Origin: a candidate division FCPU426 bacterium
GTDB taxonomy: Bacteria > Oederibacteriota > Muellerivitia > Muellerivitales > Muellerivitaceae
Assembly: GCA_963738405.1 (NCBI GenBank)
Contig: CAVTWJ010000001.1
Location: 186,142-250,141, forward strand
Length of the DNA: 64,000 bases
Direction: 5' to 3'
How positions within the stretch are numbered: position 1 is the first letter of the stretch; each line of letters opens with the position of its first letter. Shown one piece after another: positions 1,522-54,469 of this stretch. The notes beneath the pieces were generated by a model that did no database searches, had not been told where the DNA came from, and saw nothing but the letters and a program-made list of their open reading frames with translations. A program made the position numbers and the translations under genes.

Positions 1522-3079
1522 GTTTGCAACCTTATCGATTCTTATTGGGATATCCATTTTAGGGCGACCTGTCCAAGCGGCGTTTGATAAGGGGGGGGTG
1601 ACAGGAGATGGGGCTCGACCGCTAGGTATGGGTGGTGCTTTTGCTAGTGTTGCGGATTCTTCCGATGCGGTTTTTTACAACCCTGCTGGTTTAGTCCAAG
1701 TATTGCGGCCAGAGATTACCGGAATGGGAGCTGTTCTTTTGAACGGTAAGGAAGATCTTTTTGATCTGACTTATGTTCAACCTTTTGCGGATCAAATGGC
1801 TTGGGCCTTATCCACTCAACAGCTTTTGTTTTCGGATGGCACAGAAAATGATCGAATTTATATTGGATCTTTTGCGGCTCCTCTTGCAGTAGATAAATCG
1901 ATTTCATTTGGTATCAGCGCCAAACTTTATGGGGTGGATTCGCCCACGCAACCGGGGTTTCAAGCCAGTGGATTTGGTTTGGATATGGGTTTTCTATATC
2001 ATCTTCCCATTTATGACCCCCGATACGGAAAACAAATTAACATAGGGCTTTGCGCTCAAGATTTGGACACCTCCATCCAATGGCAAGCTGGAAACACTGA
2101 TCCGGTGGCCTTGGCTGTTAAGGGGGGAGTCAGCTATGAATTTACAGATGATTTGGTTACGGCCTGGGAATTCGAAACTATCAATGATCCCAATGTTGGC
2201 CAGCATACCCTTCTTCATGCCGGAATCGAAGGTTGGTTTTTTTCTGATCAATTAGGTTTGCGGACCGGTTATTCCGATTTCATGACATTGCCGGGCCAAT
2301 TTACGGCTGGCATCAGTTACCGTTCTCATACATGGGGAATCGATTATGCTTACATTGGTCATGCGCAATATTTAGGTTCTTCCCACCGTATTTCAGCTAG
2401 TTGGCGATTTGGGGATTCGTTTTTGGGAAAGGTGAAAAGTTTTATACCCGAGGGAGTTACTTCTTATGTCGATGGTGACATTATCACCCTTCGTTGGATC
2501 AATTCACCTTCCATTTCTCTAGCGGGTTACAATGTTTATTTTTCCAAAACCACCGGTAGTGGGTATATAAAGATAAATCAAAAGCCAATAAAAGCAAATT
2601 ACTATTCCTTGCGAGGATTGGAAAAAAATACCCATTACTACTTTGTTGTAACTTCTATGACAAATACCGTTCCCCCTGTTGAAAGCCAATACTCCCGAGA
2701 GGTTATTGCCGGAACAACATCTGCTCCTGGAGCTCCCATAGTGGTTCAAAGCGAGTTGCAAAATGAAGGGGTTATTGATATTGCACGACAAGCCGGAATG
2801 GCAGGGTTCCCAGATCCTAGTAAAAATGGTTTAAAAGGTTATAATATCTACGTTTCAGAGGTGTCTGGTGGACGTTTTGATAAGGTGAATGCCCAGCCGA
2901 TAGCGAATGTGCCTACATATCTTGTCCGGAAATTGAAAGTTGGACAACGATATTTCTTTTCTTTCACATCTGTTGGGTCAGATGGAACAGAAAGTGCTAG
3001 ATCTCGAGAGGTTTCTGTTGTTGCGTTGCCTTATAGTACCGTTATTCAACCAACTTCAACGACCTCGACGTCTCATTAA
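1511..3079 (+). CDS. PorV/PorQ (UPF0164)-family barrel with two fibronectin type III domains
   Basis: Signal peptide, GARPLGMGGAF..AVFYNPAGL motif, SHRISASWRF barrel end; two LAGYNVY/LKGYNIY..Y.F..TS..ES..S.EV Fn3 repeats. Confidence 0.75.
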   Translation: MVIRFATLSILIGISILGRPVQAAFDKGGVTGDGARPLGMGGAFASVADSSDAVFYNPAGLVQVLRPEITGMGAVLLNGKEDLFDLTYVQPFADQMAWALSTQQLLFSDGTENDRIYIGSFAAPLAVDKSISFGISAKLYGVDSPTQPGFQASGFGLDMGFLYHLPIYDPRYGKQINIGLCAQDLDTSIQWQAGNTDPVALAVKGGVSYEFTDDLVTAWEFETINDPNVGQHTLLHAGIEGWFFSDQLGLRTGYSDFMTLPGQFTAGISYRSHTWGIDYAYIGHAQYLGSSHRISASWRFGDSFLGKVKSFIPEGVTSYVDGDIITLRWINSPSISLAGYNVYFSKTTGSGYIKINQKPIKANYYSLRGLEKNTHYYFVVTSMTNTVPPVESQYSREVIAGTTSAPGAPIVVQSELQNEGVIDIARQAGMAGFPDPSKNGLKGYNIYVSEVSGGRFDKVNAQPIANVPTYLVRKLKVGQRYFFSFTSVGSDGTESARSREVSVVALPYSTVIQPTSTTSTSH

Positions 3080-3099: not shown

Positions 3100-3885
3100 T
3101 TGCCTAGCGGTTTATACATTGCGGCATCGGGAATGAATGCGACTTTGGCCCGTCAAGATGTCATTTCTAATAATTTGGCCAATGCGAACACGGTCGGCTT
3201 TAAACAAAATCGATCAGTTGATATCGCATTTCCAACATATCTTATTGCCCGGCTTCATGATCAACGTCTAAAGGTTATGGATGGAACGGCTGAATTGCGA
3301 CCCTCCATTGGCGTAATGGGTGGCGGAGTGATTCCTCAAACGGTTGCGACTGACTATTCACAAGGGGCCCATCTTGAAACTCAAAGCCCGCTGGATTTTG
3401 CGCTAAATGGTCCGGGTTTTTTTTCCGTGCTGGGGACGAATGGGAAAACATTTCTAACTCGAGATGGAAATTTTAGCTTGGATTCAAATGGTCGTCTTGT
3501 GACGAAAGATGGGTTGCCCGTGTTGGGCCACAATGGCGAAATATATATCGATGGAACCCAGGTAACAGCTGACCAAGAAGGTAATTTGACAGTCGACGGA
3601 AAAGCTTTGGATCAACTTCTGATTGTTAAAGTGAAAAACGAGAATCAACTAACTAAGGTGGGGCATTCGTTGTTTCAGGTTGAAGCCAAAAATCAAGTTG
3701 AGTTAATGCCTGAAGATGTTCAAGTTCAACAGGGCTTTTTAGAACAATCGAATGTGAATTCAATGTCGGAAATGGTTAATATGATTGATACCTACAGATC
3801 CTATGAACTGAATTCTCGAATCATTGCTTCATATGATCATTTAATGGGAGAGGCAGCTTCGCAAATTGGGTCGCTGAAAGTTTGA
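3100..3885 (+). CDS. flgF: flagellar basal-body rod protein FlgF
   Basis: SNNLANANTVGFK, TRDGNF, LEQSNVN motifs; precedes flgG. Confidence 0.9.
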   Translation: MPSGLYIAASGMNATLARQDVISNNLANANTVGFKQNRSVDIAFPTYLIARLHDQRLKVMDGTAELRPSIGVMGGGVIPQTVATDYSQGAHLETQSPLDFALNGPGFFSVLGTNGKTFLTRDGNFSLDSNGRLVTKDGLPVLGHNGEIYIDGTQVTADQEGNLTVDGKALDQLLIVKVKNENQLTKVGHSLFQVEAKNQVELMPEDVQVQQGFLEQSNVNSMSEMVNMIDTYRSYELNSRIIASYDHLMGEAASQIGSLKV

Positions 3886-3912: not shown

Positions 3913-3992
3913 ACGGCCGGACTGCTTTTGCGGAGGCCGTTTTACCGCTGAACGATTGAGGCGGTATTGTTCAAGCTGATAGAGGGCTTGAA
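3913..3992 (+). promoter_or_regulatory. structured flgG leader (three hairpins; first shares motif with flgE leader)
   Basis: acggcc-GGA-ctgc-tttt-gcgg-A-ggccgt (3913-3940); taccgc..gcggta (3943-3966); ttcaagc..gcttgaa (3970-3992); SD AGGAGG follows. Confidence 0.6.
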
Positions 3993-4007
3993 ACCAAGGA
4001 GGCTTCC

Positions 4008-4808
4008 ATGATGCAGTCGCTTTACACGGCCGCGACAGGTATGGCCGCACAGCAGTTGAATATCGATACGATTTCGAACAACCTCGCTAACGTCAGCACA
4101 ACAGGCTTTAAAAAACAACGTGTTGATTTCCAAGATCTACTTTACATCAATCTGAAACCTTCCGGGACTCCAACTTCACCTGATACCAATACTCCGGTTG
4201 GACTGCAAATCGGCGAGGGAGTTAAGCCGGTTTCTACACAGCGCATATTCACTGAGGGCGCGATACAAAATACCAATAACCCATTGGATATTCTTATCGA
4301 AGGAAACGATAGTTTCTTTCAAGTGACCTTACCAAACGGTGAAACGGCCTATACCCGGGACGGATCGTTCACTCAAGATGCGAACGGAAATATCGTTACC
4401 GCCGATGGATATTTTTTAAATCCGCCAACACAGCTTCCTGCAGACACATCCTCTATTCAAATTACCACCAATGGCCAGATCATGGTGCAAACAGCAAGCA
4501 GTGCCGGCCAATCAGTTCAAGTTGGGCAGTTGGAACTTACTCGGTTTGTAAATCCCGCAGGTTTGATGGCCACGGGGAACAATTTATTCCTTGCAACGGC
4601 GGCTTCGGGAGATCCAATTCAGGGTACGCCTGGATCGACGGGATTTCCTAACGTTCAGCAGGGTTCTTTGGAAGAATCAAACGTTGATGTTGTCGATGAA
4701 ATGGTTAACCTCATCGTGGCTCAAAGGGCTTATGAACTTAATTCAAAAGCGGTCTCGACCTCCGATTCCATGCTCTATGATATTACAACGATGAAGCAGT
4801 TCCCCTGA
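4008..4808 (+). CDS. flgG: flagellar distal rod protein FlgG
   Basis: SNNLANVSTTGFKK, FQDLLY, GLQIGEGV, YTRDGSF, AQRAYELNSK; AGGAGG SD. Confidence 0.96.
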   Translation: MMQSLYTAATGMAAQQLNIDTISNNLANVSTTGFKKQRVDFQDLLYINLKPSGTPTSPDTNTPVGLQIGEGVKPVSTQRIFTEGAIQNTNNPLDILIEGNDSFFQVTLPNGETAYTRDGSFTQDANGNIVTADGYFLNPPTQLPADTSSIQITTNGQIMVQTASSAGQSVQVGQLELTRFVNPAGLMATGNNLFLATAASGDPIQGTPGSTGFPNVQQGSLEESNVDVVDEMVNLIVAQRAYELNSKAVSTSDSMLYDITTMKQFP

Positions 4809-4820
4809 TGATTTAGCCGC

Positions 4821-5798
4821 ATGAGGATTTTGGTTTTAATGGGCCTGTTTGGGTGCGGAGTTTGCCATATGCCCCTGTTATGTGCTGAAAAAACAGTAAC
4901 CATTCGTCTGGTTGATCAAGCTACCGTTGCGGGACCGAATATCGTTTTGGGTGACATAGCTGTGTTGGACGGTGAGGATAAAGTTGAGGTTGATCGCTTG
5001 GACCGAATGGTAGTGGAAAGGGCCGCGCCAATGGGGCAGAAGGTATCCGTTGCCCAAACCGCTATAAAAATAGCTCTTAGTCGAGAAGGTTATTCCCCGA
5101 ATGAGGTTCAACTTGTGGGCGCTGAATCATCCCTGGTTTTGACACAGACCCAGGAAGTGACTCCCGGCCAATTGTTAGTGGCTGCTCAATCTTTTATTCT
5201 TTCCCAGACCGGGGAAGATCCGAGAAATTTGAAAATTAAGCTTTTGGGGCCGCTAAAAAATCTGGTGATCCCAACTGGGAATTTGGGGATTCATTATCGT
5301 CCGGCCCTTGTTGGGCAATACGAAGGCGTGCAAATATTAACTGCTGAATTGACCGTTGATGGTCGCAGTATTCGATTGGTTCCTGTTAGGTTGGATGCTC
5401 AGATTCTTCATGCCGTTGTTCAAACCACCAGGGCCATAAGCAAAGGGGATAAATTTACGGTTGATAATGTTTCGCTAGGGACGCTTCCCACCTCGCAAAT
5501 TTTAAAGGGAACCCTTCAACACCTAGATGACGTCTTAGGCCGGAGCGCGGCCTTTGATCTAAAATCTGGGACTCCGGTTCGTTTTAGCGAAATAAATGAC
5601 CCTCCGGTTATACGCCACGGTAGCATTGTTCAGGCATTTGTTGAAACCGGAAATATAGAAATCGTTGTTCATGCGCGGGCCGTCGCCGATGGAAAAGCCG
5701 GTGAAGAGATCCTTGTTGAAAACACTGATTCACATAAAATCTTGAAAGCCAAGGTTTTGGATGAAAACAGTGTTTTAATTGACCCGATGAAGCCGTGA
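4821..5798 (+). CDS. flgA: P-ring assembly chaperone FlgA
   Basis: Signal peptide, SAF-like region, C-terminal ADGKAGEEILVENTDSHKILKAKV; between flgG and flgH. Confidence 0.88.
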   Translation: MRILVLMGLFGCGVCHMPLLCAEKTVTIRLVDQATVAGPNIVLGDIAVLDGEDKVEVDRLDRMVVERAAPMGQKVSVAQTAIKIALSREGYSPNEVQLVGAESSLVLTQTQEVTPGQLLVAAQSFILSQTGEDPRNLKIKLLGPLKNLVIPTGNLGIHYRPALVGQYEGVQILTAELTVDGRSIRLVPVRLDAQILHAVVQTTRAISKGDKFTVDNVSLGTLPTSQILKGTLQHLDDVLGRSAAFDLKSGTPVRFSEINDPPVIRHGSIVQAFVETGNIEIVVHARAVADGKAGEEILVENTDSHKILKAKVLDENSVLIDPMKP

Positions 5799-5813
5799 GT
5801 TGCGGGAGGAAAT

Positions 5814-6437
5814 ATGTGTTATAAAATGTTAAGAATTTTGTGGTTCGGGATGATATGGCTGGTTTTGCCACCCCAAATTGTAAGGGCGGATTCTATCTAT
5901 CCGCTTGAGGGTTCCTCCTCTATCTATACTGAGAAACGTGCCCACAGGGTTGGTGATGTCATTACAGTCATGATTCAAGAAGACACGCAGGCAAGCCAAG
6001 GCGCCAGCAGTCAAAACCAAAAAACGGCCAGTCTGGCTTTAGGAGCTGGGACCGGATACTTGGGAGCTGGTACCTACGGTTCAAACATATTAAACAGCAA
6101 TAGCCAAATCGGTGTTGGGGCCAGTTCTGGACATCAAGGTCAAGGCTCGACGAGTCGTGGAACAACCATTACGGGTCAAATGACGGCAAAGATCGTTTCG
6201 GTGCTACCCAATGGGAATTTCCAGATTGAGGGAGCAAGGTATGTTGAGGTTAATGAGGAAAAACAAACGGTCGAAGTGGTCGGAGAAATAAGGCCAGATG
6301 ATATTTCAAGGGACAACACAGTGCCTTCATCGCGCGTGGCAGACGCTAAGATTAAAATTACGGGGACGGGCCCGGCCTCCGAATCGGCTAAACCGGGAAT
6401 TCTTACTCGTGTACTGGGTTGGTTGGGTCTTTTTTAA
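5814..6437 (+). CDS. flgH: flagellar L-ring protein FlgH
   Basis: RAHRVGDVITV, VLPNGNFQIEG, GEIRPDDI..NTVPSSRVADAKI. Confidence 0.93.
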   Translation: MCYKMLRILWFGMIWLVLPPQIVRADSIYPLEGSSSIYTEKRAHRVGDVITVMIQEDTQASQGASSQNQKTASLALGAGTGYLGAGTYGSNILNSNSQIGVGASSGHQGQGSTSRGTTITGQMTAKIVSVLPNGNFQIEGARYVEVNEEKQTVEVVGEIRPDDISRDNTVPSSRVADAKIKITGTGPASESAKPGILTRVLGWLGLF

Positions 6438-6447
6438 AGGAAAAAAC

Positions 6448-7566
6448 ATGAAGAATAATTTAGGTTTTCTTGGCGGATTAATCCTTGCTTTCGTGACAAT
6501 TGGATATTTACCAGTAAATGCCGCTCAGGTACGCCTCAAGACGATCGCACAAGTTAAGGGCGTTCGAGAAAATCAGTTGATAGGATATGGCTTGGTGGTA
6601 GGTCTACAACGAACCGGTGATACTCAAAGGGTCGTTTCCACCCTTCAAAGTATTACCAACATGCTTATGCAATTCGGCATAAAAATTAATTCTGATCAAA
6701 TTCGGACCCAGAATGTTGCCGCAGTCATGGTAACGGCCCAGTTACCAGCGCTTTTGCAATCAGGAGACAAAATCGATGTCGTTGTTTCCTCGGTAGGAGA
6801 CGCTCGGAGCCTTCAAGGCGGAAATTTGCTAATGACCCCGCTCCAAGGCCCGGATGGTCAAGTTTACGCTGTTGCCCAAGGACCTCTCGCTGTTGGGGGC
6901 TATTCGGACAACACCGGAGAATTTCCTCTTATCCAGGTGGATACGACTACCACGGGTCGGGTTCCTAATGGTGCCATGGTAGAAAGGGAAGTGCCGTCTT
7001 CATTCATTGACAACAACACCATTTCAATCCTTTTGGATCGTCCGGATTTCAGTCAAGCGTCGCTTGTGACGCAAGCATTGAACCAGCAATTTGGTGAACC
7101 AGTGGCACGGGCGGTTGACGGCGGACAAATTGATGTGAAATTACCTCCCAATTACCAAGATAACATTGTGGATTTCATCGCGGCCGTGGAAGAAACACAA
7201 GTTCAAACGGATTCCCCTGCCAGCAGAGTTGTTGTAAACGAAAGAACGGGAACGGTAGTTTTGGGACAGGATGTTCGAATCGACGCCGTCGCGATCGCAC
7301 ATGGGAATCTTCGTTTGGTTATCAAGAAAACAACCCAAATATCTCATGACGCTGTCTTTGGCCATGATGAATTGACACACACGACAACCGTTTCCGCAGA
7401 AGATACGGGCAAACAAGGAAACTTAGTTGTCCTTCCAGAAGGCGCAACACTTCTTGACATCGTAACCGCAGTTAACGCGGTTGGCGCGACTCCGCGGGAC
7501 CTTATTTCTATTCTTCAGGCGATTAAGGAAGCGGGGGCTCTTCACGCGGATCTAACGATTCTTTAA
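6448..7566 (+). CDS. flgI: flagellar P-ring protein FlgI
   Basis: GVRENQLIGYGLVVGL, NVAAVMVTA, LISILQAIKEAGALHA; ATG at 6448 after AAAGGA is preferred over the ORF start at 6298. Confidence 0.96.
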   Translation: MKNNLGFLGGLILAFVTIGYLPVNAAQVRLKTIAQVKGVRENQLIGYGLVVGLQRTGDTQRVVSTLQSITNMLMQFGIKINSDQIRTQNVAAVMVTAQLPALLQSGDKIDVVVSSVGDARSLQGGNLLMTPLQGPDGQVYAVAQGPLAVGGYSDNTGEFPLIQVDTTTTGRVPNGAMVEREVPSSFIDNNTISILLDRPDFSQASLVTQALNQQFGEPVARAVDGGQIDVKLPPNYQDNIVDFIAAVEETQVQTDSPASRVVVNERTGTVVLGQDVRIDAVAIAHGNLRLVIKKTTQISHDAVFGHDELTHTTTVSAEDTGKQGNLVVLPEGATLLDIVTAVNAVGATPRDLISILQAIKEAGALHADLTIL

Positions 7567-7580
7567 TTCGGGGGACTGAT

Positions 7581-8039
7581 TTGAATCCAAGTGTTGCAGC
7601 GGTGAATAACCTTCAACCCTTTATTCATGCCGTTTCTTCTGGCAATAATTCATTTTCGAGTGACTCCCAATTGGCGGCACAAACGCTCATGGGAAACACG
7701 CTTATGTCTCATGTGCCTTCCTTATCGAATCCAAATCAATTGAATTCCTTGCGGCCTGTTTTTGATCTGAATTCAAACCATGTTCATTCGGAAGCTCAGC
7801 TTCGAAAAGTTTCGAAAGATTTTGAAACGATCTTTTTACAGATGATGTTAAAGGAGATGCGTAATTCCGTTCAAAAGTCTGGCCTTATGGGTGATTCCCA
7901 AGCGACAAGCCTATTTGAGTCAATGCAAGACGAGCAAATTTCCCGTCAACTGGCTTCCGCGGGCGGAATTGGAATTGGAAACATGATTTATGGACAATTA
8001 GAGAAAGCCGTAGCTCCCCATCAAAAATCGTTTAAATGA
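7581..8039 (+). CDS. flgJ: single-domain rod-capping protein FlgJ (rod-binding, no muramidase domain)
   Basis: LRKVSKDFETIFLQMMLKEMR..GGIGIGNMIYGQL. Confidence 0.85.
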   Translation: MNPSVAAVNNLQPFIHAVSSGNNSFSSDSQLAAQTLMGNTLMSHVPSLSNPNQLNSLRPVFDLNSNHVHSEAQLRKVSKDFETIFLQMMLKEMRNSVQKSGLMGDSQATSLFESMQDEQISRQLASAGGIGIGNMIYGQLEKAVAPHQKSFK

Positions 8040-8473
8040 CTTGGGCCAACTGTTCCCGTTGTGGCAAAGCCTATACCCAAATGACGGTTGGAATGAATAT
8101 TTGCCAAATTTGCGCCAAAGAAGAAGACGACAACTTCACGTTGGTTTTTAGGTATCTTTCCACCCGCCCCGCTGCTACAGCCCAAGAAATTGCCCAAGAA
8201 ACCGGTGTTGATATTAAAGAGATTTATAAATATGTGCGGGAAAACCGGCTTCGACTTGTAAAAAATGATGCTGGTTTTTTTTGCGAAGGGTGTGGAGTGC
8301 CCATTTCGCAGGGAAAAAGGTGCGAAAAATGCTTTCGAAAACTGACGATTGAATTTCGAAATGATATAACCAAAACTATGGAAAATCGAAAAAATTCCTC
8401 TGAAAACCATAGTTTTTCCTCTCGTGATCCCCAAAAAGGCCCTAAATACCTTAAAAAATATAGAGGCGAATAA
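8036..8473 (+). CDS. YvyF-like flagellar operon protein (Zn-finger/HTH)
   Basis: NCSRCGK..ICQIC, HTH IAQETGV..YVRENRL, CEGCG..CEKC; lies before flgM as in Firmicutes. Confidence 0.8.
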   Translation: MTWANCSRCGKAYTQMTVGMNICQICAKEEDDNFTLVFRYLSTRPAATAQEIAQETGVDIKEIYKYVRENRLRLVKNDAGFFCEGCGVPISQGKRCEKCFRKLTIEFRNDITKTMENRKNSSENHSFSSRDPQKGPKYLKKYRGE

Positions 8474-8532
8474 AACGAGCCTTTTGAACGGTTTTCCTCC
8501 CTTCTTTTCCACCATTCATCAAAGAATTTAGC

Positions 8533-8559
8533 TCAAGTTTTCCATTTAGGAGCCGTTAG
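8533..8559 (+). promoter_or_regulatory. sigma28 (FliA)-type promoter of flgM
   Basis: TCAAGTTT-N11-GCCGTTAG, matching TAAAGTTT-N11-GCCGATAA spacing; identical boxes recur before flgD. Confidence 0.75.
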
Positions 8560-8587
8560 GTTTATCAGAAAACCTAAGGAGATCCCC

Positions 8588-8875
8588 ATGAAAATCGACG
8601 GATTTCAAAACATCCCAGCCATTCTTCAATCATTTCAAAAAACGACTCAGCCCTCTCAAAAATCTGAAATCGAAGGTTCCTTCAGTTCGGTTTCCTTGAG
8701 CTCGTTTGGGGAAGTGCTTCAGTCTTTGCAACGCCAATCAGCTCAAACTTCTCAGGCAAATGCCAAGAAAATTGAGCAATTAACTCAACAAATCGAATCA
8801 GGCAAGTATCAAGTCGATCTTAATAAACTTGCCACAAAGTTGGTTGATTCAAATATTATCGATTTCAAGGGTTAA
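8588..8875 (+). CDS. flgM: anti-sigma28 factor FlgM
   Basis: SVSLSS..KKIEQLTQQIESGKYQVDLNKLATKL. Confidence 0.88.
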   Translation: MKIDGFQNIPAILQSFQKTTQPSQKSEIEGSFSSVSLSSFGEVLQSLQRQSAQTSQANAKKIEQLTQQIESGKYQVDLNKLATKLVDSNIIDFKG

Positions 8876-8877
8876 TC

Positions 8878-9363
8878 ATGATTCAGCAGTATCAAAAGCT
8901 CGTAGCTGAGTTAAAAAACGAAAGGGCCTGCTATACCCGTTTGGCTTCATTAGCATCGGAGCAAAAACAATTTCTCGTTTCCGGCGAATTGGACAAAGTG
9001 GCCGATAACCTGAAACGTCAAGAAAAAGAGGTTTTTGCCTTATCACCCCTATTGGGTGAAAGAAACGACCTTTCGGACGTCTTGGGGAAGGCTCACAAAA
9101 TATCCAACGCGACTTTGGCCCAAATTATTCAAAACGCGCCACTGGAAATCATTGAAGAGTTAAAAATGGCCGTGATTGATTTGGTTCGCTCGGCCAAGGA
9201 ACTAGAAGACATTAACCAAGGCAACGAAAAGCTCGCGAACAACGCCTTGTCACTCGCCGATTTGACCCTTAAGGCTTTAGTGGGGAAGGGGCGTTCCAAT
9301 TCGGGCTCCCCATCCCCGAAAAAAGAAGAAGCCAAATCGTCTTTCGTCAACCGCGTGGTTTAG
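8878..9363 (+). CDS. flgN: flagellar chaperone FlgN
   Basis: Helical 161 aa with LEDINQGNEKL pattern, between flgM and flgK. Confidence 0.8.
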   Translation: MIQQYQKLVAELKNERACYTRLASLASEQKQFLVSGELDKVADNLKRQEKEVFALSPLLGERNDLSDVLGKAHKISNATLAQIIQNAPLEIIEELKMAVIDLVRSAKELEDINQGNEKLANNALSLADLTLKALVGKGRSNSGSPSPKKEEAKSSFVNRVV

Positions 9364-9372
9364 GAGGCTGGA

Positions 9373-11730
9373 ATGATCAGTGGGTTTCAAAGTTTAAGCA
9401 CTATTAACAGCGGGTTGATTCTCCAGCAATTGGAGCAGGATGTAACTGCTTCCAACCTTGCCCAGCCTTCGCTTGATTCCCAAGGCTACCTGATGAACAG
9501 CCTAGAACGCGTTAACCCCGGTTCCGCTCCGTCTCTGTCCTTTAACGGCGCCAATGGGTTCATGTCGATTGGAAACGGCGTAACTGTTGATTCAATTACT
9601 CGCCTTCGAAATTCATTCTTGGATAACCAAATCCGCCAGGAAAGTTCACTTGTGGGTTATGACGAAATTTTAGCCAATTCCACCGGGAGCGGTGTTCTTA
9701 ACCAAATAAACTCAATCATCAATGCCTCCCCAACTACCACGCTTAATTACGCACTAACTCAATTTCAATCAGCTTGGCAGACTTTAGGGGCTAACACCAA
9801 TCCGGCTCTCGATTTAGCAGATGGGGCCTCGGTAGTAAGCGCAGGAACGGCGTTTGCCCAGATGGCCAACAGCCAATACAACCAATTGCAGGGCTTGCAG
9901 ATTACCTACAACAACAATATCCAAGGAACGGTTAACCAGATCAATCAGTTGTTTCAACAGTTGAATTCTATCAATGTACAGCTTAACTCGACTCAGGGAT
10001 CTAACCAAAACACCTTGTTAGATGCCCGGGATTACGCTTTAGATAAACTCTCTCGGCTCATGAATTTTCAGGTCACCTTTGGCAACAACGGTACGGCGAG
10101 CCTTTTCCTTAATGGGATTTCACTTGTGGGACCAAGTGGAGCGGCCCAACTCCAAGCAAATATACCTGACCCAAACAATCCTGCTCTCGTGAATATTACG
10201 CTTGAACCCTTTAACAGTTCCGTTCCGATGGAAACTGGGGGAGGGATAGTACCTGTTGCAATACCTTCGATAGTCGATCTCACAACTCAGATCACGGGAG
10301 GCAACCTGGGTGGGTATTTACAAGCTCGAAATGTCATCTTGCAGTCTTATAAGCAGCAGGTAAATCAAGCTACGACAGCCGCTATGAATTTTACGAACAC
10401 ACTCCAATCCGCCGGTTTTGCATCAAATGGTGTAACAACGGGTACTTTGTTTTTTGAGGGCACTGGGGCCTCAAATATCGTGGTGAATGGTGTTTTAACC
10501 ACAAATAGTGGGCTAGTTGCGGAGTCGAGCGTGGCCTTTGGAGCAGCTGGCGCTGTGGCCTATCCCGGAGCACCGGTTACTGGAAACCAGCAAATCGCGC
10601 AAATGCTTGGCGGGGGGAACTATGGGGCAAGTCCTATAATAAACCCAGGTCTGATGAATCTCATGGCGCAAAATTTTTCGGCTAGTGCTAAGGCTATTGG
10701 CATTCCAAATCCCTACGCCGCTTTGGGTTTGACAGGCTCCGCTTCAATCGATGGGGTAACTATTTCTTATGTTCCCACCGATACCATTTCAAGCATTTTG
10801 CAGCAGATTAATAACAATGTTTCGGGTGTAACTGCTGTTTACAATTCTTCCAGCCAGCAATTTTTCATTTTTTCTCCAAATCCTGTAAACATCACCGATA
10901 TCTCCGGCCTGAACCCCTTTGCAAACAGTACTGCGGCCGGGGCGGGTTGGACTAACCTGTCGAATTTTATGGTCGGAACTTCGACCCTCAATAATAGTTT
11001 TACGCCTAATCAGGCAATAGTGCAGTCTGGTGGCGCTCCCATGAATTCAATTGCCTCCATAGTTCCTGGCAACGGCCCAAATGATTCTGCCTTTGCCGTG
11101 ACACCATCCACAACTGGCTCCTTTACGGTTAATGGAGTAGCCGCTCCAATTCAATGGAACAATACTCAGTCTTTAAATACGATCCGGCTTCAAATCAACG
11201 CTTCAACCGCTGGGATCGCATCCCAAGCATTAGCGCCTCCCAATATTTTGTTTTCGCCTTTTTTTGGCGGTAACTCAGTCCAAATATTCAAAATGCAATC
11301 AGATCAGCCGATGCAAATCACCGACATTTCGGGAAATTTTACATCGGTAGTCGGCCTTAATAACAACACCGAAACTTTGGGACAACTTTCGAACTCCATT
11401 CTTGGGCAAGTAAATACAGAATTATCCAGCCAACAGATGGCAACCGGTCAAGCCCAAGATTCGCTCAACCAACTCAACACCGCCCAAGCCAATATTGCCG
11501 GTATCTATACTGGGGGTTCCTCGCCCGTAACCACGGCTTCGGGGATACCGACCTCCTCCAATTCGGGGGTTCCCCTGGCTTCCATACAACAGCAAGCCAC
11601 CCAGGCTGCGACGACTTACAACGCTTTATTAGAAATTATGCAGGTAATTGACAATATGTATCAAAATTTAATCAACGTTGTAGGCGGGGGAACGACCAGT
11701 AGTAATTCAAACAATACTTTCCAGGGTTAG
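9373..11730 (+). CDS. flgK: divergent hook-associated protein FlgK (785 aa)
   Basis: IGNGVTVDSITRLRNSFLDNQIR, LLDARD..LDKLS, GGNLGGYLQARN; terminal motifs diverged. Confidence 0.85.
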   Translation: MISGFQSLSTINSGLILQQLEQDVTASNLAQPSLDSQGYLMNSLERVNPGSAPSLSFNGANGFMSIGNGVTVDSITRLRNSFLDNQIRQESSLVGYDEILANSTGSGVLNQINSIINASPTTTLNYALTQFQSAWQTLGANTNPALDLADGASVVSAGTAFAQMANSQYNQLQGLQITYNNNIQGTVNQINQLFQQLNSINVQLNSTQGSNQNTLLDARDYALDKLSRLMNFQVTFGNNGTASLFLNGISLVGPSGAAQLQANIPDPNNPALVNITLEPFNSSVPMETGGGIVPVAIPSIVDLTTQITGGNLGGYLQARNVILQSYKQQVNQATTAAMNFTNTLQSAGFASNGVTTGTLFFEGTGASNIVVNGVLTTNSGLVAESSVAFGAAGAVAYPGAPVTGNQQIAQMLGGGNYGASPIINPGLMNLMAQNFSASAKAIGIPNPYAALGLTGSASIDGVTISYVPTDTISSILQQINNNVSGVTAVYNSSSQQFFIFSPNPVNITDISGLNPFANSTAAGAGWTNLSNFMVGTSTLNNSFTPNQAIVQSGGAPMNSIASIVPGNGPNDSAFAVTPSTTGSFTVNGVAAPIQWNNTQSLNTIRLQINASTAGIASQALAPPNILFSPFFGGNSVQIFKMQSDQPMQITDISGNFTSVVGLNNNTETLGQLSNSILGQVNTELSSQQMATGQAQDSLNQLNTAQANIAGIYTGGSSPVTTASGIPTSSNSGVPLASIQQQATQAATTYNALLEIMQVIDNMYQNLINVVGGGTTSSNSNNTFQG

Positions 11731-11745
11731 GAAAGGGAGAACATT

Positions 11746-14700
11746 GTGAAAAGTATAAGCGAACTTTTAGACAGCCTTTCGGCCAAACAAACCGATACCA
11801 CCCTAAACCCGACGGGGGTTGTTAACCCTTCTGGAAATGGGGCTGGATCGAATAACAATTCTTTTGGCCAGGTTATCGCCAAAATTTCAAACCAGCAACA
11901 AAACGCCAACAATAACAATCCAGTTCCGTTGACTGCGAATCATTCTGCGACAACGCCGGTTGTGTCGCCTTCTGCTGTAACTCCTGCAACCTCGACCGCC
12001 CAAACGCCTTCTCTCTTAACGGGTTCGACAGGGGCCAACCAAGCCGCCCAAGACACACTTCTTGTTATCGAAAAACTTCAAGGCGTCAAACCCCAAGATG
12101 TGGCTGCGATTGAAAAAGCTTTTTTTGCCATGGCTTCGGGTTTGGCCAATCTTCTTTCTCAGGCTCAACAGCTAACGGGTGAAAATTCTAGTCAGCTTCA
12201 AGCCCAATTGGTCGCCAATTCGGGGGGGCAAATTACTCCCGCCGAAGCATCCCAATTGGTTTCGGCGGTTCAAACTTTCGTGCAAAACCTTCCTCAGGGA
12301 CAAAACCCGCTTGATTTGAATAAACAGGACCAAAACCAGCTTGTGGGCCAAATGCTTCAACAAATGCTTCAGAATCAACAGGTTGCCTTTGCGCTTGCGC
12401 CGCAGGCCGCTACTCAGGGGGACAATCAATCTGTTAACACGACTTCATCCATATCCTCGATTGCGCAATCAAATGTTCTTTCTAATGTCACTTTGCGGTT
12501 TATGTTTGCTGATGGACAAATCAGCCAAACCTCTGCGACGGGGAATCAGAACAGCGGGGTTCAAGTTAATTTCCAAAGCGCCGGGGTGCAGGTTCTAACT
12601 CAAACTTTTAACACACAAAACTCTTTAGGGAGTATTGGTTCGGATTCCCTCCCGCAGGCATCGCTTCATTCAAACCAGCCTATTTTAAACAGAACGGTCA
12701 ATTTTCAACCGATTTCGCAGGATACGGTGAATTCAATATTGAATACCCTGTCCCAATTAGGAGCGCAACAAACTACCAATCTTCCAGTTACCATTGTTAA
12801 TCCCACTGTTTTAGGTCAAGGGCAACAAAACGCTGCCAATGGCCAGAATCTCCAGGCTCTCTTTAAGGTGTTGCTACAAGCCGGTGCTGGTCCGGTCATG
12901 CTTCAATCATCCATGGCACAGCAGGGAACCACCGCAAATAATCCTAATTCGCAGGCAACAACCCAAACTGGAAATCTTTTCACGCAATTTTCTGAAACCA
13001 TTACCGGGTCTATCCAATCCGTTTCGGTCCAGCCAATTGCGAGCGCTCAAAACACCGAAAATCCAACCATCAATCAGAATTCTTTCCCTTCGGCTCTGAT
13101 TTCGCAAAACGCCGGTAATACTCCTGTCAATTTAAAACCGATACCCCAAACAAGCACACAACCCACAGGTAACATCTCCAACAATTCCAACCTCTTACCT
13201 CAGAACGGCGCCCAAACCCCCGAAAACCTTGCGGTTAGTCCTAAGGCTGTTACTTCGACACAGGGAAACAATCAAACCCTCCAACCGCAAAATCAAACCG
13301 CGGCCAATGCTCCTAATGTGGGTAATGCCCAATCCTTCTGGTCGTCAGTTAATTTTCGACGGATTAACGATCTGGTGCTTCGATTTACCAATTTCATCGG
13401 CCAATCCAATACAGCGGTTGCGGTTCAATCTGCGGCGGGTCAGGGTCCCGCTCCCGTAGCCATTGCCAATACCCCTAGCGCTATTACCGCTCAGGTTGGC
13501 TCTTCCGTCGGCCCCCAGGCATCTCCCATCGCTATAGCCCAATTGCCAAATGGGGATCAGCAAGAAATCGTCAACAATGTTTTGACGCCGAATACCATTC
13601 AAATTCAGCCAATTCCGATACCCAATGCTCCTGTTACCACAACAACTCGGATTCAAACACAAGATCAAATCCATTTGTCCCAATCTCAACTGTCTCAACA
13701 AGACGCTTCAGTGTTGAACCAAAATCAAACCCCCATTTCTCCATTGGCCTCCAATCCCATTCAATCTGAATCAAACCAAAACTCGCAAAATTCAACTCAA
13801 ACGCAAGTGATAAGTTCTGTTTCTCCCTTAATTCCAACGAACACCACGGTTAACAGCGCAACACCCTTAAATAATAACCCGGCTGTGGTTACTTCTTTTG
13901 GAACCTCGAATTCCGTTGCGTCTTCCGCCAATATTAATCCCGCACCGCCTTCCGCTGTTTCGGGGCCTCCTGTGCTTCCTGGAACACAGGTTGTCACGCT
14001 TTCTCAGCCAGTCCCACAATCCAATTCGACCCAACCCTCGCAAGGTGGTTCGATAGCTCTGACATCAAATGCCCTAAATCAAGCACAGGATCCGGGTCTT
14101 TCGACACCGCCGGTATCCTTGGCACAAAATCTGTCCGGCTCCGTCGCAGCAGTTAACCTATTTGCCCAAGGAATTCCGCAAAATCAGTCGAATCACACTC
14201 AAACTCCAATAACCGCTAATCCGGTTCAGCCCTCCGGAACTATTTCAACGGCTACACCTCAGGCAGTGTCGGCAGTAACAAATGTGGGTGCTTCGGAGAA
14301 CCTGAAGCCTATCGGAGCACAAGAAAAGAGCCCTCTAACCGACCTTATGTCTTCCCAAAACCAGCCAGCTTTAGCCTCTAATGGCGTGGTTTATACCCTT
14401 GGGAAAAATGGGGAACTTCAATCGATAAATCCAGCGGGTAATCAGGTGCCGGTCAACGTTCAAGACCTGATTCGTCAGATTTCAAATCAAATTTCTGGAA
14501 AAACGGGTGATTTGAAAGCTACTTCTACCATCAGTTTTCAATTGTCGCCTGAAAACTTGGGAAGAATGACGATCCAGGTTTCCATGGCCGATCAATCGGT
14601 TTCGGCGAGAATTCTCGTGACAAACTCGGATGTCCGGGACGCCCTTCAACAGCATTTAGTGGATCTTAAAACTTCACTGAGCCAGTCAGGGTTGCAAATT

Positions 14701-14892
14701 GACCAGCTTCAGGTTCAAGTGCAGGGCGGCGGGGCCAGCCTTTTGGCCCAGTATTATCAGTACCAACAGGAAGGTTATGGGGCCAGCCTACCCTTTATGG
14801 GGGATACCAGTTCTACCGAGATCGCAGGCGAAAATGAGGCCAATTTGGCCCCGCTTTCGCTTAGGAAATCCCTTGTAAATCTGCTGGCTTAA
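11746..14892 (+). CDS. fliK: hook-length control protein FliK (1048 aa)
   Basis: Long Q/N/S/T/P-rich region, C-terminal T3S4 domain FQLSPENLGRMTIQV..VRDALQQHLVDLKTSLSQSGL; precedes flgD. Confidence 0.88.
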   Translation: MKSISELLDSLSAKQTDTTLNPTGVVNPSGNGAGSNNNSFGQVIAKISNQQQNANNNNPVPLTANHSATTPVVSPSAVTPATSTAQTPSLLTGSTGANQAAQDTLLVIEKLQGVKPQDVAAIEKAFFAMASGLANLLSQAQQLTGENSSQLQAQLVANSGGQITPAEASQLVSAVQTFVQNLPQGQNPLDLNKQDQNQLVGQMLQQMLQNQQVAFALAPQAATQGDNQSVNTTSSISSIAQSNVLSNVTLRFMFADGQISQTSATGNQNSGVQVNFQSAGVQVLTQTFNTQNSLGSIGSDSLPQASLHSNQPILNRTVNFQPISQDTVNSILNTLSQLGAQQTTNLPVTIVNPTVLGQGQQNAANGQNLQALFKVLLQAGAGPVMLQSSMAQQGTTANNPNSQATTQTGNLFTQFSETITGSIQSVSVQPIASAQNTENPTINQNSFPSALISQNAGNTPVNLKPIPQTSTQPTGNISNNSNLLPQNGAQTPENLAVSPKAVTSTQGNNQTLQPQNQTAANAPNVGNAQSFWSSVNFRRINDLVLRFTNFIGQSNTAVAVQSAAGQGPAPVAIANTPSAITAQVGSSVGPQASPIAIAQLPNGDQQEIVNNVLTPNTIQIQPIPIPNAPVTTTTRIQTQDQIHLSQSQLSQQDASVLNQNQTPISPLASNPIQSESNQNSQNSTQTQVISSVSPLIPTNTTVNSATPLNNNPAVVTSFGTSNSVASSANINPAPPSAVSGPPVLPGTQVVTLSQPVPQSNSTQPSQGGSIALTSNALNQAQDPGLSTPPVSLAQNLSGSVAAVNLFAQGIPQNQSNHTQTPITANPVQPSGTISTATPQAVSAVTNVGASENLKPIGAQEKSPLTDLMSSQNQPALASNGVVYTLGKNGELQSINPAGNQVPVNVQDLIRQISNQISGKTGDLKATSTISFQLSPENLGRMTIQVSMADQSVSARILVTNSDVRDALQQHLVDLKTSLSQSGLQIDQLQVQVQGGGASLLAQYYQYQQEGYGASLPFMGDTSSTEIAGENEANLAPLSLRKSLVNLLA

Positions 14893-14914
14893 TACGTTTT
14901 TAGCGGGTAAGGGC

Positions 14915-14941
14915 TCAAGTTTTTCGGCATAATGCCGTTAG
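14915..14941 (+). promoter_or_regulatory. sigma28-type promoter of flgD-TIGR02530-flgE
   Basis: TCAAGTTT-N11-GCCGTTAG, both boxes identical to those before flgM. Confidence 0.72.
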
Positions 14942-14968
14942 AAATTGTAAGAAAGAGGGGTGATTTTC

Positions 14969-15385
14969 ATGATTTCAGGAGTTAGCGGAAACTCGAACAA
15001 CAACTCCATTTCGAGTGCGTTGTCAAGCGCTACCGGTAGTAATCAATTCGTGTCAGAAAACACTTTTTTAACTCTTCTGATTACGCAGTTGAAGAATCAG
15101 GATCCGATGAATCCCCAGGACAGCAGTCAGTTCGTGGCTCAGTTGGCGTCATTTTCTTCGTTGGAACAAATGACGGCAATCAATACCTCGATGCAGAATG
15201 TTTTGGATAATTCGTCGACCAGTTTGATCGGTCAACACGTGTCGTTGCTCGATGCGTCGGGAAGTTTGGTTCAAGGTACGGTGACCGGCATTGTTTATTA
15301 CGCCAATACGCCGGCGGTTCAGGTCAACGGGCAGAACTATCCCTTGTCGGATATTCAAAACGTTGGGAATATTGTAGGTCAGTAA
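14969..15385 (+). CDS. flgD: hook-capping protein FlgD
   Basis: FLTLLITQLKNQDPMNP..FVAQLASFSSLEQM. Confidence 0.93.
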   Translation: MISGVSGNSNNNSISSALSSATGSNQFVSENTFLTLLITQLKNQDPMNPQDSSQFVAQLASFSSLEQMTAINTSMQNVLDNSSTSLIGQHVSLLDASGSLVQGTVTGIVYYANTPAVQVNGQNYPLSDIQNVGNIVGQ

Positions 15386-15444
15386 CGATTGAGTTTTTAG
15401 TTTGGCCCGGTAGCTTAGGGCTTTTGAAAGGCAGGTGAGGACAA

Positions 15445-15855
15445 GTGGTTCAGCAAGTTAACTTTAATGACTTGGTTTTTAAGCCGGTGGATGACGTCCA
15501 AAGCAAAGGCCAGTTGCAGCAGATTCAGCAACAGGCGAATAAAGCTGCGGAAGCCGTTCAGCCTTTTGACGCCGTGTTTCAATCGGCGGTTGATAAAACC
15601 CAATCGTTGAAGTTTTCGGCCCACGCCAAGGAAAGGCTGGCTTTGCGTAATATCAATCTTTCCCAGGATGACATGACCCGTATGAACGCTGCAGTGGATA
15701 AGGCGGCTTCCAAGGGGGCGCGTCAATCTCTTCTGGTGATGGAACACCAGGCTTTTATCGTGAGTGTGCCGAACCGCACCGTGATTACCGCGATGGATGG
15801 CGGAAGCATGAAAGAGAACGTCTTCACCAACATTGATAGCGCGGTGATTGTTTAG
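15445..15855 (+). CDS. TIGR02530-type flagellar operon protein
   Basis: LKFSAHAKERL..KG..SL..FIVSVPNRTVITAMD..ENVFTNIDSAVI, between flgD and flgE. Confidence 0.88.
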   Translation: MVQQVNFNDLVFKPVDDVQSKGQLQQIQQQANKAAEAVQPFDAVFQSAVDKTQSLKFSAHAKERLALRNINLSQDDMTRMNAAVDKAASKGARQSLLVMEHQAFIVSVPNRTVITAMDGGSMKENVFTNIDSAVIV

Positions 15856-15872
15856 TTTAAGTAGGGTAGCAA

Positions 15873-15924
15873 CGGGCTGGACCTCCTAGAGGAAGCCCGA
15901 AATTCGGCGGGCCTAATGCCTGCC
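15873..15924 (+). promoter_or_regulatory. structured flgE leader (two hairpins)
   Basis: cgggct-GGA-cctc-cta-gagg-A-agcccg (15873-15899) and ggcgggc-ctaat-gcctgcc (15906-15924) before SD AAGGAG. Confidence 0.6.
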
Positions 15925-15943
15925 AACTTTAAGGAGATCGATC

Positions 15944-17980
15944 ATGGGTTTAAGAGATATGTTCAGCGCCATTTCCGGGCTTCAAGCCAACAGCACTTGG
16001 CTGGATGTGATCGGAAATAACATCGCCAACACCAACACGGTGGCTTACAAATCGAGCCGGGTTGAGTTCGCGGATCAATTCAGCCAGACCCTTTACGCCG
16101 GCACCGGGGACAATACCGGCAGCGGATTGGGCGGCGTCAACCCCGAGCAGATCGGGTTGGGAACCAGGGTTGCTTCCATCCAGACCATCTGGACGGAAGG
16201 GGCTCTTCAGCAAACCGGTGTTTCCACCGACGTGGCCATCAACGGCAATGGCTTTTTGGTGACGAAAAACGACAACAGCACCTTTTACACCCGCGCCGGC
16301 AACCTGACCTTTGACAGCCAAGGCAACTTGGTTGACCAAAACGGGGGATTGATTCAGGGCTTTACGGCCACGGTTCAATATACGCAAACCGAAATCAATT
16401 CGACCAACGGAAACGCGGTAAATCCCACTCCGTTGGAAGTCACCTACGCCGATTTGAAGGTTCAGAACACGAACCTGTCGGCGGCTACGAACATTCAAAT
16501 CAATCCGAATTTCGTGGAGCCCGCCAAGGCGACTTCGCAGTTGAATTTTGTTGGTAACCTAGACTCTTTCCAACAGGCCAATGTGCTCAATATCGGCGCG
16601 GATACCGCTGCGGAACCGGCTACATTGCCAATTGGAATGCTAGGCGGTGGCGGTGTTGCGGCGGATTGGAATTTAAATAAGGTGGCACTCTCGGGATACG
16701 CGCCTCTTGGGGCGGCTGGAACCGGAACCCAAACCGTTCTGAACCAAGTGAACGATTACGCCACGGGTGTAGATCCGAACAATCCGGGACATACGACTCC
16801 CCTGATCGTTGGCGGGGCTGTATCTTTGGCTGCCATTCAAAATCCAGCAAATCCGCTGACAGAAAGTTTCGCATGGAATCAGCAGCCTCCAGTCACCCCG
16901 GCGTTGACTTCAACCCAGACGGTTTATGATTCGACGGGGGTACCCCATACCATTACAACCCAGTTTTACCAGGTAAATGATTTGGGAACCGCGAATCCTC
17001 CAATCAATCCCTCACCTGAGAATCAGGTGGCCTATGCCTGGTATTCTTTCGACACCACCGGTGGGGCAGCCGTCAGTACGGCGAATCTGCTTGGCGGGTC
17101 AGGCATTGTTGAAGGGCCGGACCCCGTTGCTGGAACTGCGGGTTATAACCGAGGGCAAGCGGGAACATCCTATTGGGGAGATTTGATCTATTTCAATACG
17201 GATGGATCCTTGGCTTCAATGGGTGGTGTTGAAGTAACTGCAGGCGCCAATGTGATTCAATCCGCAGCCCATGTTTATCTACCGGCAATCCAACCGCCAG
17301 CCGTCGCTCCTGGGCCGGTCGGTCAATTAACTCCGGTTTCACCGATTCCAACCCTTGGTGCTGAAATCATGGATATCACCATGGATTTTGGAACCGCAGG
17401 TTACACACAGGGCCCGACCGAAGCTCCGGTTGCGACTGCGGCTGCTAACACGGCTGGAGCTGCTCTTCCCGCCGGCTCGCCCGCACCTGGAACGATTCTT
17501 GATGCCAAACGCGACGGCTTTTTCAGCGATGCGGAAGGCACCTATCAGATCATCAATGGCGTCAATACATACGTGGCCAACAGCCATTCTACTACCAGCC
17601 AAAATGGTTACGCTGATGGGGTACTGCAGAACCTATCATTCGATCAAACCGGCACTATTCAAGGCCAGTTTAGCAACGGGCAAACCACGGCACTCGGCCA
17701 AGTTTTGATGGCCAGCGTCGAGAACGTAAATGGATTGTCCAAGGTGGGAAGCAATTATTATTCAGCTTCACCCAACGCCGGGGCTCAAACTTTAGGTTTG
17801 GCGGGTAAAAACGGTATGGGTACTATCCAAGGCGGTTACTTGGAAGCGTCCAACGTCGATTTGACCACTGAACTTTCCAACATGATCATCGCGCAGAGGG
17901 GATTTGATGTGAATTCCCGCGTGATCTCGGTTGAAAACGCAAACTTGCAGGTTCTGACTCAGTTGGGTCAAGGCGGCTGA
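15944..17980 (+). CDS. flgE: flagellar hook protein FlgE (678 aa, large inserts)
   Basis: DVIGNNIANTNTVAYK, YTRAGNL, VYDSTG, LEASNVDLTTELSNMIIAQRGF. Confidence 0.95.
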   Translation: MGLRDMFSAISGLQANSTWLDVIGNNIANTNTVAYKSSRVEFADQFSQTLYAGTGDNTGSGLGGVNPEQIGLGTRVASIQTIWTEGALQQTGVSTDVAINGNGFLVTKNDNSTFYTRAGNLTFDSQGNLVDQNGGLIQGFTATVQYTQTEINSTNGNAVNPTPLEVTYADLKVQNTNLSAATNIQINPNFVEPAKATSQLNFVGNLDSFQQANVLNIGADTAAEPATLPIGMLGGGGVAADWNLNKVALSGYAPLGAAGTGTQTVLNQVNDYATGVDPNNPGHTTPLIVGGAVSLAAIQNPANPLTESFAWNQQPPVTPALTSTQTVYDSTGVPHTITTQFYQVNDLGTANPPINPSPENQVAYAWYSFDTTGGAAVSTANLLGGSGIVEGPDPVAGTAGYNRGQAGTSYWGDLIYFNTDGSLASMGGVEVTAGANVIQSAAHVYLPAIQPPAVAPGPVGQLTPVSPIPTLGAEIMDITMDFGTAGYTQGPTEAPVATAAANTAGAALPAGSPAPGTILDAKRDGFFSDAEGTYQIINGVNTYVANSHSTTSQNGYADGVLQNLSFDQTGTIQGQFSNGQTTALGQVLMASVENVNGLSKVGSNYYSASPNAGAQTLGLAGKNGMGTIQGGYLEASNVDLTTELSNMIIAQRGFDVNSRVISVENANLQVLTQLGQGG

Positions 17981-18028: not shown

Positions 18029-18064
18029 CGGCGCCCTTCTTAACGGGGGGCGCCGTTTATTTTT
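18029..18064 (+). terminator. intrinsic terminator after flgE
   Basis: cggcgcccttc-ttaac-ggggggcgccg followed by tttattttt. Confidence 0.8.
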
Positions 18065-54256: not shown

Positions 54257-54328
54257 CGGGGCGTAGCGCAGCGGTAGCGCACTTGGTTTGGGACCAAGGG
54301 GCCGTGAGTTCGAATCTCACCGCCCCGA
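54257..54328 (+). tRNA. tRNA-Pro(TGG)
   Basis: CGGGGCG acceptor stem, anticodon arm cttgg-tttggga-ccaag, GTTCGAATC; CCA not encoded. Confidence 0.95.

Positions 54329-54392: not shown

Positions 54393-54469
<77 letters not shown>

Follow-up and report, generated by a model that had tools for sequence, protein, structure and literature searches.

In a 64-kb window of DNA from a candidate division FCPU426 bacterium (64,000 nucleotides of contig CAVTWJ010000001.1; all coordinates below are positions in this window), we found that the leaders of the flagellar genes flgG and flgE are both headed by the same short hairpin, here called H1. H1 is extremely conserved in related genomes and is restricted to the flgG and flgE leaders in the DNA compared. 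The observation is real and uncatalogued, while the mechanism is hypothetical: we hold with about even confidence, from comparison of the sequences, that H1 is a hairpin recognized through its sequence by a trans-acting factor that works on flgG and flgE mRNA.

The flagellar cluster lies on the forward strand of the window, and its Pfam and NCBIfam annotation agrees with the names flgG and flgE that the original prediction, made from the letters of this DNA, had given to the two genes. Between flgF and flgE there are five gaps longer than 50 nt (122, 114, 67, 59 and 88 nt), two of which are occupied by H1, namely the flgF-flgG gap (122 nt) and the gap between the TIGR02530 gene and flgE (88 nt). 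The coordinates and letters first given for both hairpins were exact (Table 1). The flgG H1 consists of a 6-bp stem, a 5' GGA (3919-3921) facing a single A (3934), a 4-bp stem with one U-G pair and a UUUU loop; the flgE H1 has a 6-bp stem, a 5' GGA (15879-15881) facing a single A (15893), a 4-bp stem and a CUA loop. Both were present in the minimum free energy (MFE) structure and in the centroid of the intergenic RNA (ViennaRNA), which bears out the architecture that had been described.

Relatives were collected by a genome contig search with FlgI as the query, with 10-kb flanks on each side spanning both leaders; the query matched six contigs from uncultured bacteria at 72-87% identity and one distant contig at 43%, and gene order was kept in the related contigs. 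The comparison comprises six species-level genomes of one uncultured clade (the window and loci L001-L005 for the flgG leaders). H1 was found at the orthologous place in all five relatives reaching the flgF-flgG gap (L001-L005) and in all three reaching the flgE leader (L001, L003, L004), which is the conservation in orthologous leaders on which the original prediction had made itself depend; the two leaders do share one motif. ACGGCCGGACUGC, thirteen consecutive nucleotides, is invariant in the six flgG leaders, the 3' arms of the flgG H1 carry three substitutions in total across the six genomes, and the flgE H1 has one substitution at non-loop positions across four genomes. In an alignment of all ten copies, flgG and flgE type together, thirteen columns do not vary. 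Among four-fold sites at residues invariant in all six genomes, 0 of 58 in flgG and 1 of 59 in flgF were invariant, and the pairwise four-fold identity between the window and its relatives was 0.21-0.36; these sites are saturated, and the conservation of H1 is therefore far above neutral. In the flgG gaps, the sequence 5' of H1 does not align among genomes. Conservation, not architecture, is the strong evidence for H1 that the sequences provide.

What is constrained in H1 is more than its pairing. Standard pairs were found in 99 of 100 pair cells over the ten copies and in only 33-52% when the partner was slid by 1-3 columns; the shuffle control on H1 pairing treats the copies without regard to the flgG/flgE type split. 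Four of the ten H1 pairs change on both sides, each of them along the divide between flgG-type and flgE-type copies, while there were no compensatory changes within type, either among the six flgG genomes or among the four flgE genomes. The original prediction spoke of covariation around an invariant loop; pairing is indeed kept through four double changes, but with none of them within either type the wording was overstated. The opposite A is not invariant either, the base facing GGA being a purine (A in 8/10 copies and G in 2/10). Stems, GGA and the opposite purine are fixed, while the apical loop is free to change, both in its bases and in its size of 3-5 nt (UUUU, AAUA, AAA, AAU, AUU, UAU, CUA, CUA, UCUUA and CUC). 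The second hairpins of the leaders (H2, Table 1) behave differently: four of the eight stem pairs of the flgG H2 show compensatory changes among six genomes, as do two of the seven pairs of the flgE H2 among four genomes (Alifold). The covarying H2 hairpins show that there was time enough for compensatory changes to arise, yet within either type H1 has none. H1 is therefore under selection on its sequence and not on pairing alone, and near-invariant stems beside covarying hairpins favour sequence-specific recognition over a generic stabilizing or insulating hairpin.

Several properties place H1 on the RNA. Folded alone, the flgG-type H1 reaches -15.2 kcal/mol in sense versus -10.6 kcal/mol in antisense orientation, and the flgE-type H1 has a folding energy of -13.9 kcal/mol; a U-G pair, found in 5/6 flgG copies, gives the sense hairpin an advantage of 3.4-4.6 kcal/mol over its antisense counterpart. 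This strand asymmetry, together with the leader position, indicates that H1 belongs to the sense-strand mRNA. GGA is unpaired in the MFE structure and in the centroid of both window leaders, and its predicted probability of being unpaired was 0.94-1.00 in the seven of ten leaders where H1 dominates the ensemble. The stability of the whole leaders is modest relative to shuffled sequences (z -1.89 for flgG, -1.33 for flgE).

Taken by itself, the window makes a modest case. With a strict descriptor (6 bp, GGA, 4 bp, loop of 3-5, A opposite), written after the fact, there were two sites against 0.14 expected, and none of 100 dinucleotide shuffles reached two; with a loose descriptor there were five sites where 3.05 were expected, a count reached by 22 of 100 shuffles, so that architecture alone is weak evidence. 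This last result is what favours a chance likeness of two ordinary intergenic hairpins without function. Such a coincidence is hardly credible and is in practice refuted by the near letter-for-letter conservation at all eight orthologous sites, against saturated neutral sites, and by the thirteen invariant columns across ten copies of both types. A covariance model (R1) built from the ten copies scored the flgG H1 at 44.1 bits and the flgE H1 at 45.7 bits, and found no further copy above 20 bits beyond the ten in 184,494 bases, nor in the window with filters off. As far as these 184,494 bases show, H1 is not a dispersed repeat.

H1 is an uncatalogued motif, as had been suspected at the outset. 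With Rfam 15, the window at gathering score gave only three tRNAs and a SAM-I/IV riboswitch (54795-54895), both leaders at E up to 10 gave no relevant match, and the L001-L006 loci at gathering score gave none; the families covered include Termite-flg, flg-Rhizobiales, the c-di-GMP riboswitches, epsC/EAR and TwoAYGGAY, none of which reached gathering score. The literature searched did not yield any account of a leader element common to flgG and flgE. The seed alignments of Termite-flg, flg-Rhizobiales and GUCCY-hairpin look different from H1. Termite-flg (RF01729) and flg-Rhizobiales (RF01736) (Weinberg et al. 2010, PMC2864571) are candidate cis-regulatory RNAs that comparative analysis detected 5' of flagellar genes, in lineages that are narrow or uncultured, as H1 would be; they are multi-stem structures of about 100-140 nt, in contrast to the 27-29 nt hairpin, and flg-Rhizobiales has repeated G-rich GGGAG elements before the Shine-Dalgarno (SD) sequence.

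Other known kinds of signal were also considered and rejected. H1 is not a terminator or attenuator, because it has no U-run (T residues in the 8 nt after H1: 3, 3, 3, 2, 1 and 1 in the flgG leaders; 2, 1, 0 and 1 in the flgE leaders), and neither copy is among the 25 terminator-like sites of the window. A kink-turn consists of a 3-nt bulge followed by tandem sheared G-A and A-G pairs, whereas on inspection the GGA bulge is followed by CU or CC paired with GG, without tandem G-A. RAT-like elements, ROSE-like elements and mimicry of the 16S tail did not fit on comparison by eye with consensus sequences. The half-site spacing, which varies from 3 to 5 nt, speaks against a sigma-28 or sigma-54 promoter or an operator, and no conserved -35 partner exists in any of the six flgG leaders. 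A sigma-54-like GG-N10-GC seen by eye in the flgE H2 is a by-product of stem symmetry and is lost in L003 and L004.

On the proposed reading, H1 would be a cis-acting mRNA element in which both helices, the unpaired 5' GGA(C) and the purine facing it jointly form a sequence-specific recognition site. We infer a trans-acting factor, most likely a protein, that would dock on H1, and its identity and the direction of its effect are conjectured in the same way; one such factor could set translation or stability of the flgG and flgE mRNAs together across two transcription units. A repressing factor would need to span the distance to the SD and its GGA in the manner of a CsrA dimer; otherwise the factor would act on mRNA fate. 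The coat-protein operators of the phages MS2 and PP7 are similar in that a short hairpin with an unpaired purine in its stem and specific bases is recognized; they differ in that their apical loop is recognized, whereas that of H1 is free to vary, and sequence and context are unrelated.

CsrA is the only named candidate for the factor, and by analogy it may bind H1. Within the reading as a recognition hairpin, we consider a CsrA-type protein rather unlikely and a factor other than CsrA-type a tentative possibility. GGA lies on the 5' side of the internal loop in 10/10 copies, the apical loops are without GGA, and the bases before GGA are CC or CU (context C(C/U)GGAC). The SDs, AAGGAGG and AAGGAGA, hold a GGA as any strong SD would, 54-99 nt 3' of H1; they are not occluded by H1, and each leader has three GGAs with that of the SD included. 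CsrA dimers bridge 10-63 nt, and the flgG distances exceed that range. The CsrA sites of C. jejuni flaA and B. subtilis hag, both of FliW-CsrA systems, resemble H1 in that a short hairpin of a flagellar leader presents an unpaired GGA, and the cluster with H1 is of the yvyF-flgM-flgN-flgK type, like the neighbourhoods of those systems; the helices of H1, however, are sequence-invariant, which CsrA recognition does not need. In a study in C. jejuni (PMC4894983), a CsrA site is described as a short hairpin that carries GGA in its apical loop, within an A(N)GGA context, and CsrA co-immunoprecipitation enriched reads of the flgE open reading frame (ORF) 68x and of flgG2 44x, with flgD, fliK and flgK not enriched. 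The original prediction had allowed that H1 might prove to be an ordinary CsrA site; its GGA being in an internal and not an apical loop, and the A(N)GGA context being absent, H1 is not filed as a CsrA site.

A number of observations weigh against a recognition hairpin and have to be set beside the conservation. The covariation rests on one split between flgG type and flgE type, and a single type split gives it the power of two sequences. The GGA is in an internal loop without the A(N)GGA context, and neither csrA nor fliW is among the 59 scanned ORFs of the 64-kb window. The sample is six genomes of one uncultured clade, a narrow known range. Short GC-rich look-alikes of H1 do occur, the next-best R1 match (17.4 bits, 47858-47888, inside a histidine-kinase gene) having CGGCCGGAC without the inner stem. 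Finally, with 32 nt of coding sequence added, a long-range fold is predicted in preference to H1 in three of the six flgG leaders.

That fold leads to a self-contained riboregulator, in which the H1 arms would pair with their own initiation region, closed H1 being ON and open H1 being OFF, an arrangement to which we give little credence. In the predicted flgG long-range fold GACUGC pairs with GCAGUC (codons 1-3), and the spacer between SD and AUG is taken up by the 3' arm; in flgE the alternative is CUCCU with the SD. The flgG fold is the MFE structure in the window, L001 and L004, by 6.3, 5.1 and 1.3 kcal/mol over the H1-enforced fold, GACUGC and GCAGUC are both invariant in 6/6 flgG leaders, and in the MFE structure of the L004 flgE leader CCUCCU pairs with the SD. 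On the other side, H1 itself is the MFE structure in two of six flgG leaders (a third, L003, being within 0.7 kcal/mol) and in three of four flgE leaders, and as a local structure it should form first during transcription. Moreover, the duplexes of the H1 5' half with its own initiation region were not better than those of shuffled arms (0.05-0.79 of 500 shuffles as good, ten leaders), and in 4/4 genomes the flgE H1 forms a stronger duplex with the initiation region of flgG (-14.6 to -18.4 kcal/mol) than with that of flgE (-8.2 to -13.4 kcal/mol). The window fold also leans partly on a coding-region CGGCCG palindrome (4027-4032, flgG codons 7-9, versus 3914-3919), which recurs in the window and L001 only and is missing in 4/6 genomes. 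The pairing of CUCCU (15883-15887) with AGGAG (15932-15936) had been proposed for flgE at the outset with correct letters; it is lost in one of four flgE leaders (CUCUC in L003), and as an anti-SD alternative it is not better than shuffles, is not specific and has no flgG counterpart.

The main rival is a constitutive processing or stability element, in our view a fairly improbable explanation, in which an endonuclease would cut in the A/U-rich stretch 5' of H1 or in the internal loop and H1 would shield the new 5' end, so that flgG and flgE mRNA outlive the upstream cistrons and give more subunit without an assembly-sensing regulator. Consistent with this, H1 is the first conserved leader element, nothing 5' of it being conserved in the flgG gaps; it is located in gaps inside apparent operons right before two high-copy genes, no sigma-28-like promoter lies 5' of the flgG H1 in 6/6 genomes, and other intercistronic hairpins are frequent in the cluster. 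A protective hairpin needs no set sequence, yet H1 is near-invariant while its neighbours covary; a conserved unpaired GGA with an opposite purine is unexpected for a mere 5' cap structure, and with ten base pairs H1 would be a short substrate for RNase III. A processing element accounts for the position of H1, not for its sequence invariance, and were the nuclease sequence-specific, it would fold into the recognition of H1 by a trans-acting factor. Two further explanations are both very improbable. One is that H1 and H2 form a two-hairpin signal directed at RNA polymerase, for processive antitermination through the long flagellar operons, of which HK022 put and the EAR element are the models for comparison: there are two adjacent sense-strand hairpins within long operons at variable distance from the promoter, but there is no Rfam match including epsC/EAR, H2 is wholly different between the flgG and flgE leaders, and no terminators are evident downstream inside the operons. 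The other is a DNA-level element, either a transcription-factor operator or part of a sigma-54 or sigma-28 promoter, as might be suggested by an imperfect inverted repeat 5' of flagellar genes and by GCCGGAC, which is faintly like the start of a sigma-28 -10 element. Against it, the half-site spacer is 3-5 bp, the half-sites are asymmetric (3 nt versus 1), inspection showed neither a conserved -35 nor a GG-N10-GC whose spacing is fixed, and the G-U pair gives a strand-specific structure; the types differ at four positions in both arms with pairing kept, for which a DNA-binding protein has no need. The real sigma-28-like promoters of the cluster look unlike H1.

Table 1. Features of the flagellar cluster and of the flgG and flgE leaders, with the sigma-28-like motifs of three related loci.
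Feature	Position	Strand	Remarks
Two PorV/PorQ-like outer-membrane protein genes, one with fn3 domain	25-3079	+	immediately 5' of flgF; synteny in 5/5 relatives
flgF	3100-3885	+	
H1, flgG type	3913-3940	+	acggcc-gga-ctgc-tttt-gcgg-a-ggccgt
flgG H2	3943-3966	+	7-8 bp stem, 10-nt loop
flgG H3	3970-3992	+	variable hairpin immediately 5' of SD
flgG SD and start	3998-4010	+	GGAGG 3998-4002, ATG 4008
flgG	4008-4808	+	
flgA, flgH, flgI, short flgJ		+	in this order after flgG
YvyF-like zinc-ribbon ORF, 145 aa	8036-8473	+	between flgJ and flgM, conserved
Sigma-28-like promoter	8533-8559		TCAAGTTT-N11-GCCGTTAG, 5' of flgM
flgM, flgN		+	in this order after the YvyF-like ORF, before flgK
flgK	9373-11730	+	
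fliK	11746-14892	+	
Sigma-28-like promoter	14915-14941	+	TCAAGTTT-N11-GCCGTTAG, 5' of flgD
flgD	14960-15385	+	
TIGR02530 gene	15445-15855	+	
H1, flgE type	15873-15899	+	cgggct-gga-cctc-cta-gagg-a-agcccg
flgE H2	15906-15924	+	7-bp stem, 5-nt loop
flgE SD and start	15932-15946	+	AGGAG 15932-15936, ATG 15944
flgE	15944-17980	+	
Strong terminator of the unit	18029-18055		among the 25 terminator-like sites of the window
Sigma-28-like motif in L001	12157-12183, 18442-18468		
Sigma-28-like motif in L003	12076-12102, 18411-18437, 19379-19405		
Sigma-28-like motif in L004	12266-12292, 18681-18707, 19639-19665		

The remainder of each leader was described at the outset as one or two further hairpins and then the SD, which is what we observed: H2 and H3 precede the SD of flgG, and H2 that of flgE (Table 1). 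A hairpin at the H3 position is predicted in every relative, with sequences that do not align, and GAGGAGGC or AAGGAGGC is kept in the SD region of 6/6 flgG leaders. The flgG H2 loop (3950-3959, GAAYGAYNGA) is largely invariant in six genomes although its stem covaries, and is a second conserved single-stranded element, present in the flgG leader only. A pseudoknot of this loop with downstream sequence was dismissed by eye, since the 6 bp of the window shrink to 3-4 bp or vanish in relatives. Small upstream ORFs past the SD-like 3' arm were also dismissed (AUY starts in 3/4 flgE leaders and in none of the flgG leaders). Additional GC-rich terminator-like hairpins stand between the upstream stop and H1 at L002 ~7420-7465, L003 ~7335-7380 and L003 ~19340-19378; one of those in L003 precedes a T-run, after which comes the additional sigma-28-like promoter. 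Two other leaders of the cluster have conserved features of their own. The flgD-TIGR02530 gap (15386-15444, and likewise in L001, L003 and L004) contains a covarying hairpin, seen by eye, followed by conserved GGCGGGTGAGGACAAGTG with a GTG start, and the flgM leader (8560-8587 and relatives) contains a small conserved hairpin, GGUUU-N5/6-AAACC, between the promoter -10 and the SD.

The sigma-28-like motif had two matches in the window against 0.02 expected, recurs at the corresponding places in relatives (Table 1), and agrees with 13/16 positions of the sigma-28 consensus TAAAGTTT-n11-GCCGATAA (PMC2859248). The promoter at 14915-14941 probably drives a flgD-TIGR02530-flgE transcript bearing the flgE H1; in L003 and L004 there is one additional promoter copy immediately 5' of the flgE H1. 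The flgE H1 is thus placed in a sigma-28-type transcript either internally, as in the window and L001, or at a distance of about 12-52 nt from where transcription probably starts, as in L003 and L004, and its sequence is unchanged whether it lies in a polycistronic gap or just 3' of a promoter. The flgG H1 is in a different transcription unit, and no sigma-28-like promoter was found before it in 6/6 genomes. As a separate observation, sigma-28-like promoters precede the hook genes flgD/flgE as well as flgM, and hook genes under a late-class promoter type would be unusual relative to the enteric hierarchy.

Within the cluster, the YvyF-like ORF (8036-8473) was considered as an encoded trans-factor; it matches TIGR03826 at E 4.6e-30, yet under the curated cutoff, and its atlas neighbours are annotated as "flagellar operon protein". 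It was set aside, being YvyF-like, a type of unknown function (PMC13277936), with no link to RNA seen. Elsewhere in the window, the genes at 46052-49329 specify a histidine kinase together with a sigma-54-dependent response regulator; the similarity to FlgR and FlbD models is partial and in every case under the cutoff. Two tRNA genes (54257-54466) and the SAM-I/IV riboswitch (54795-54895, 57.8 bits) precede a block of unannotated ORFs (55740-63883) that carries a D5-type primase and a phage-type integrase, and this block is probably an integrated mobile element beside the tRNAs.

Of the early axial subunits of the flagellum, the distal-rod protein FlgG and the hook protein FlgE have the highest copy numbers. 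The original prediction read the shared hairpin as a rod/hook checkpoint, which it may be. In the most developed form of this hypothesis, H1 would be the operator of a dedicated RNA-binding regulator coupling FlgG and FlgE synthesis to the growth state of the flagellum, across two promoter classes; we think this distinctly unlikely. Were it true, it would give a physical basis for post-transcriptional hook control of the kind described genetically in Salmonella, where Bonifield, Yamaguchi and Hughes reportedly found in 2000 that control of FlgE is post-transcriptional and set by assembly stage. The idea of a hook-protein level set post-transcriptionally by assembly is the same, in an unrelated organism; this control in Salmonella is not known to have been tied to an RNA element. 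FlgN-dependent translation of flgM is known as well.

Control of flagellar assembly is known mainly via transcription (sigma-28/FlgM) and, at the post-transcriptional level, via FliW-CsrA for flagellin. What limits the value of H1 is that its known hosts are a narrow range of uncultured bacteria. It does provide a 27-nt handle made of GGA, an opposite purine and two helices. If the factor is CsrA, the accepted site architecture would extend to internal loops; if it is not, there would be a new regulator to find. Further, an RNA element common to the rod and hook genes, and to no other gene of the cluster, would suggest joint post-transcriptional dosing of the two most abundant early axial proteins.

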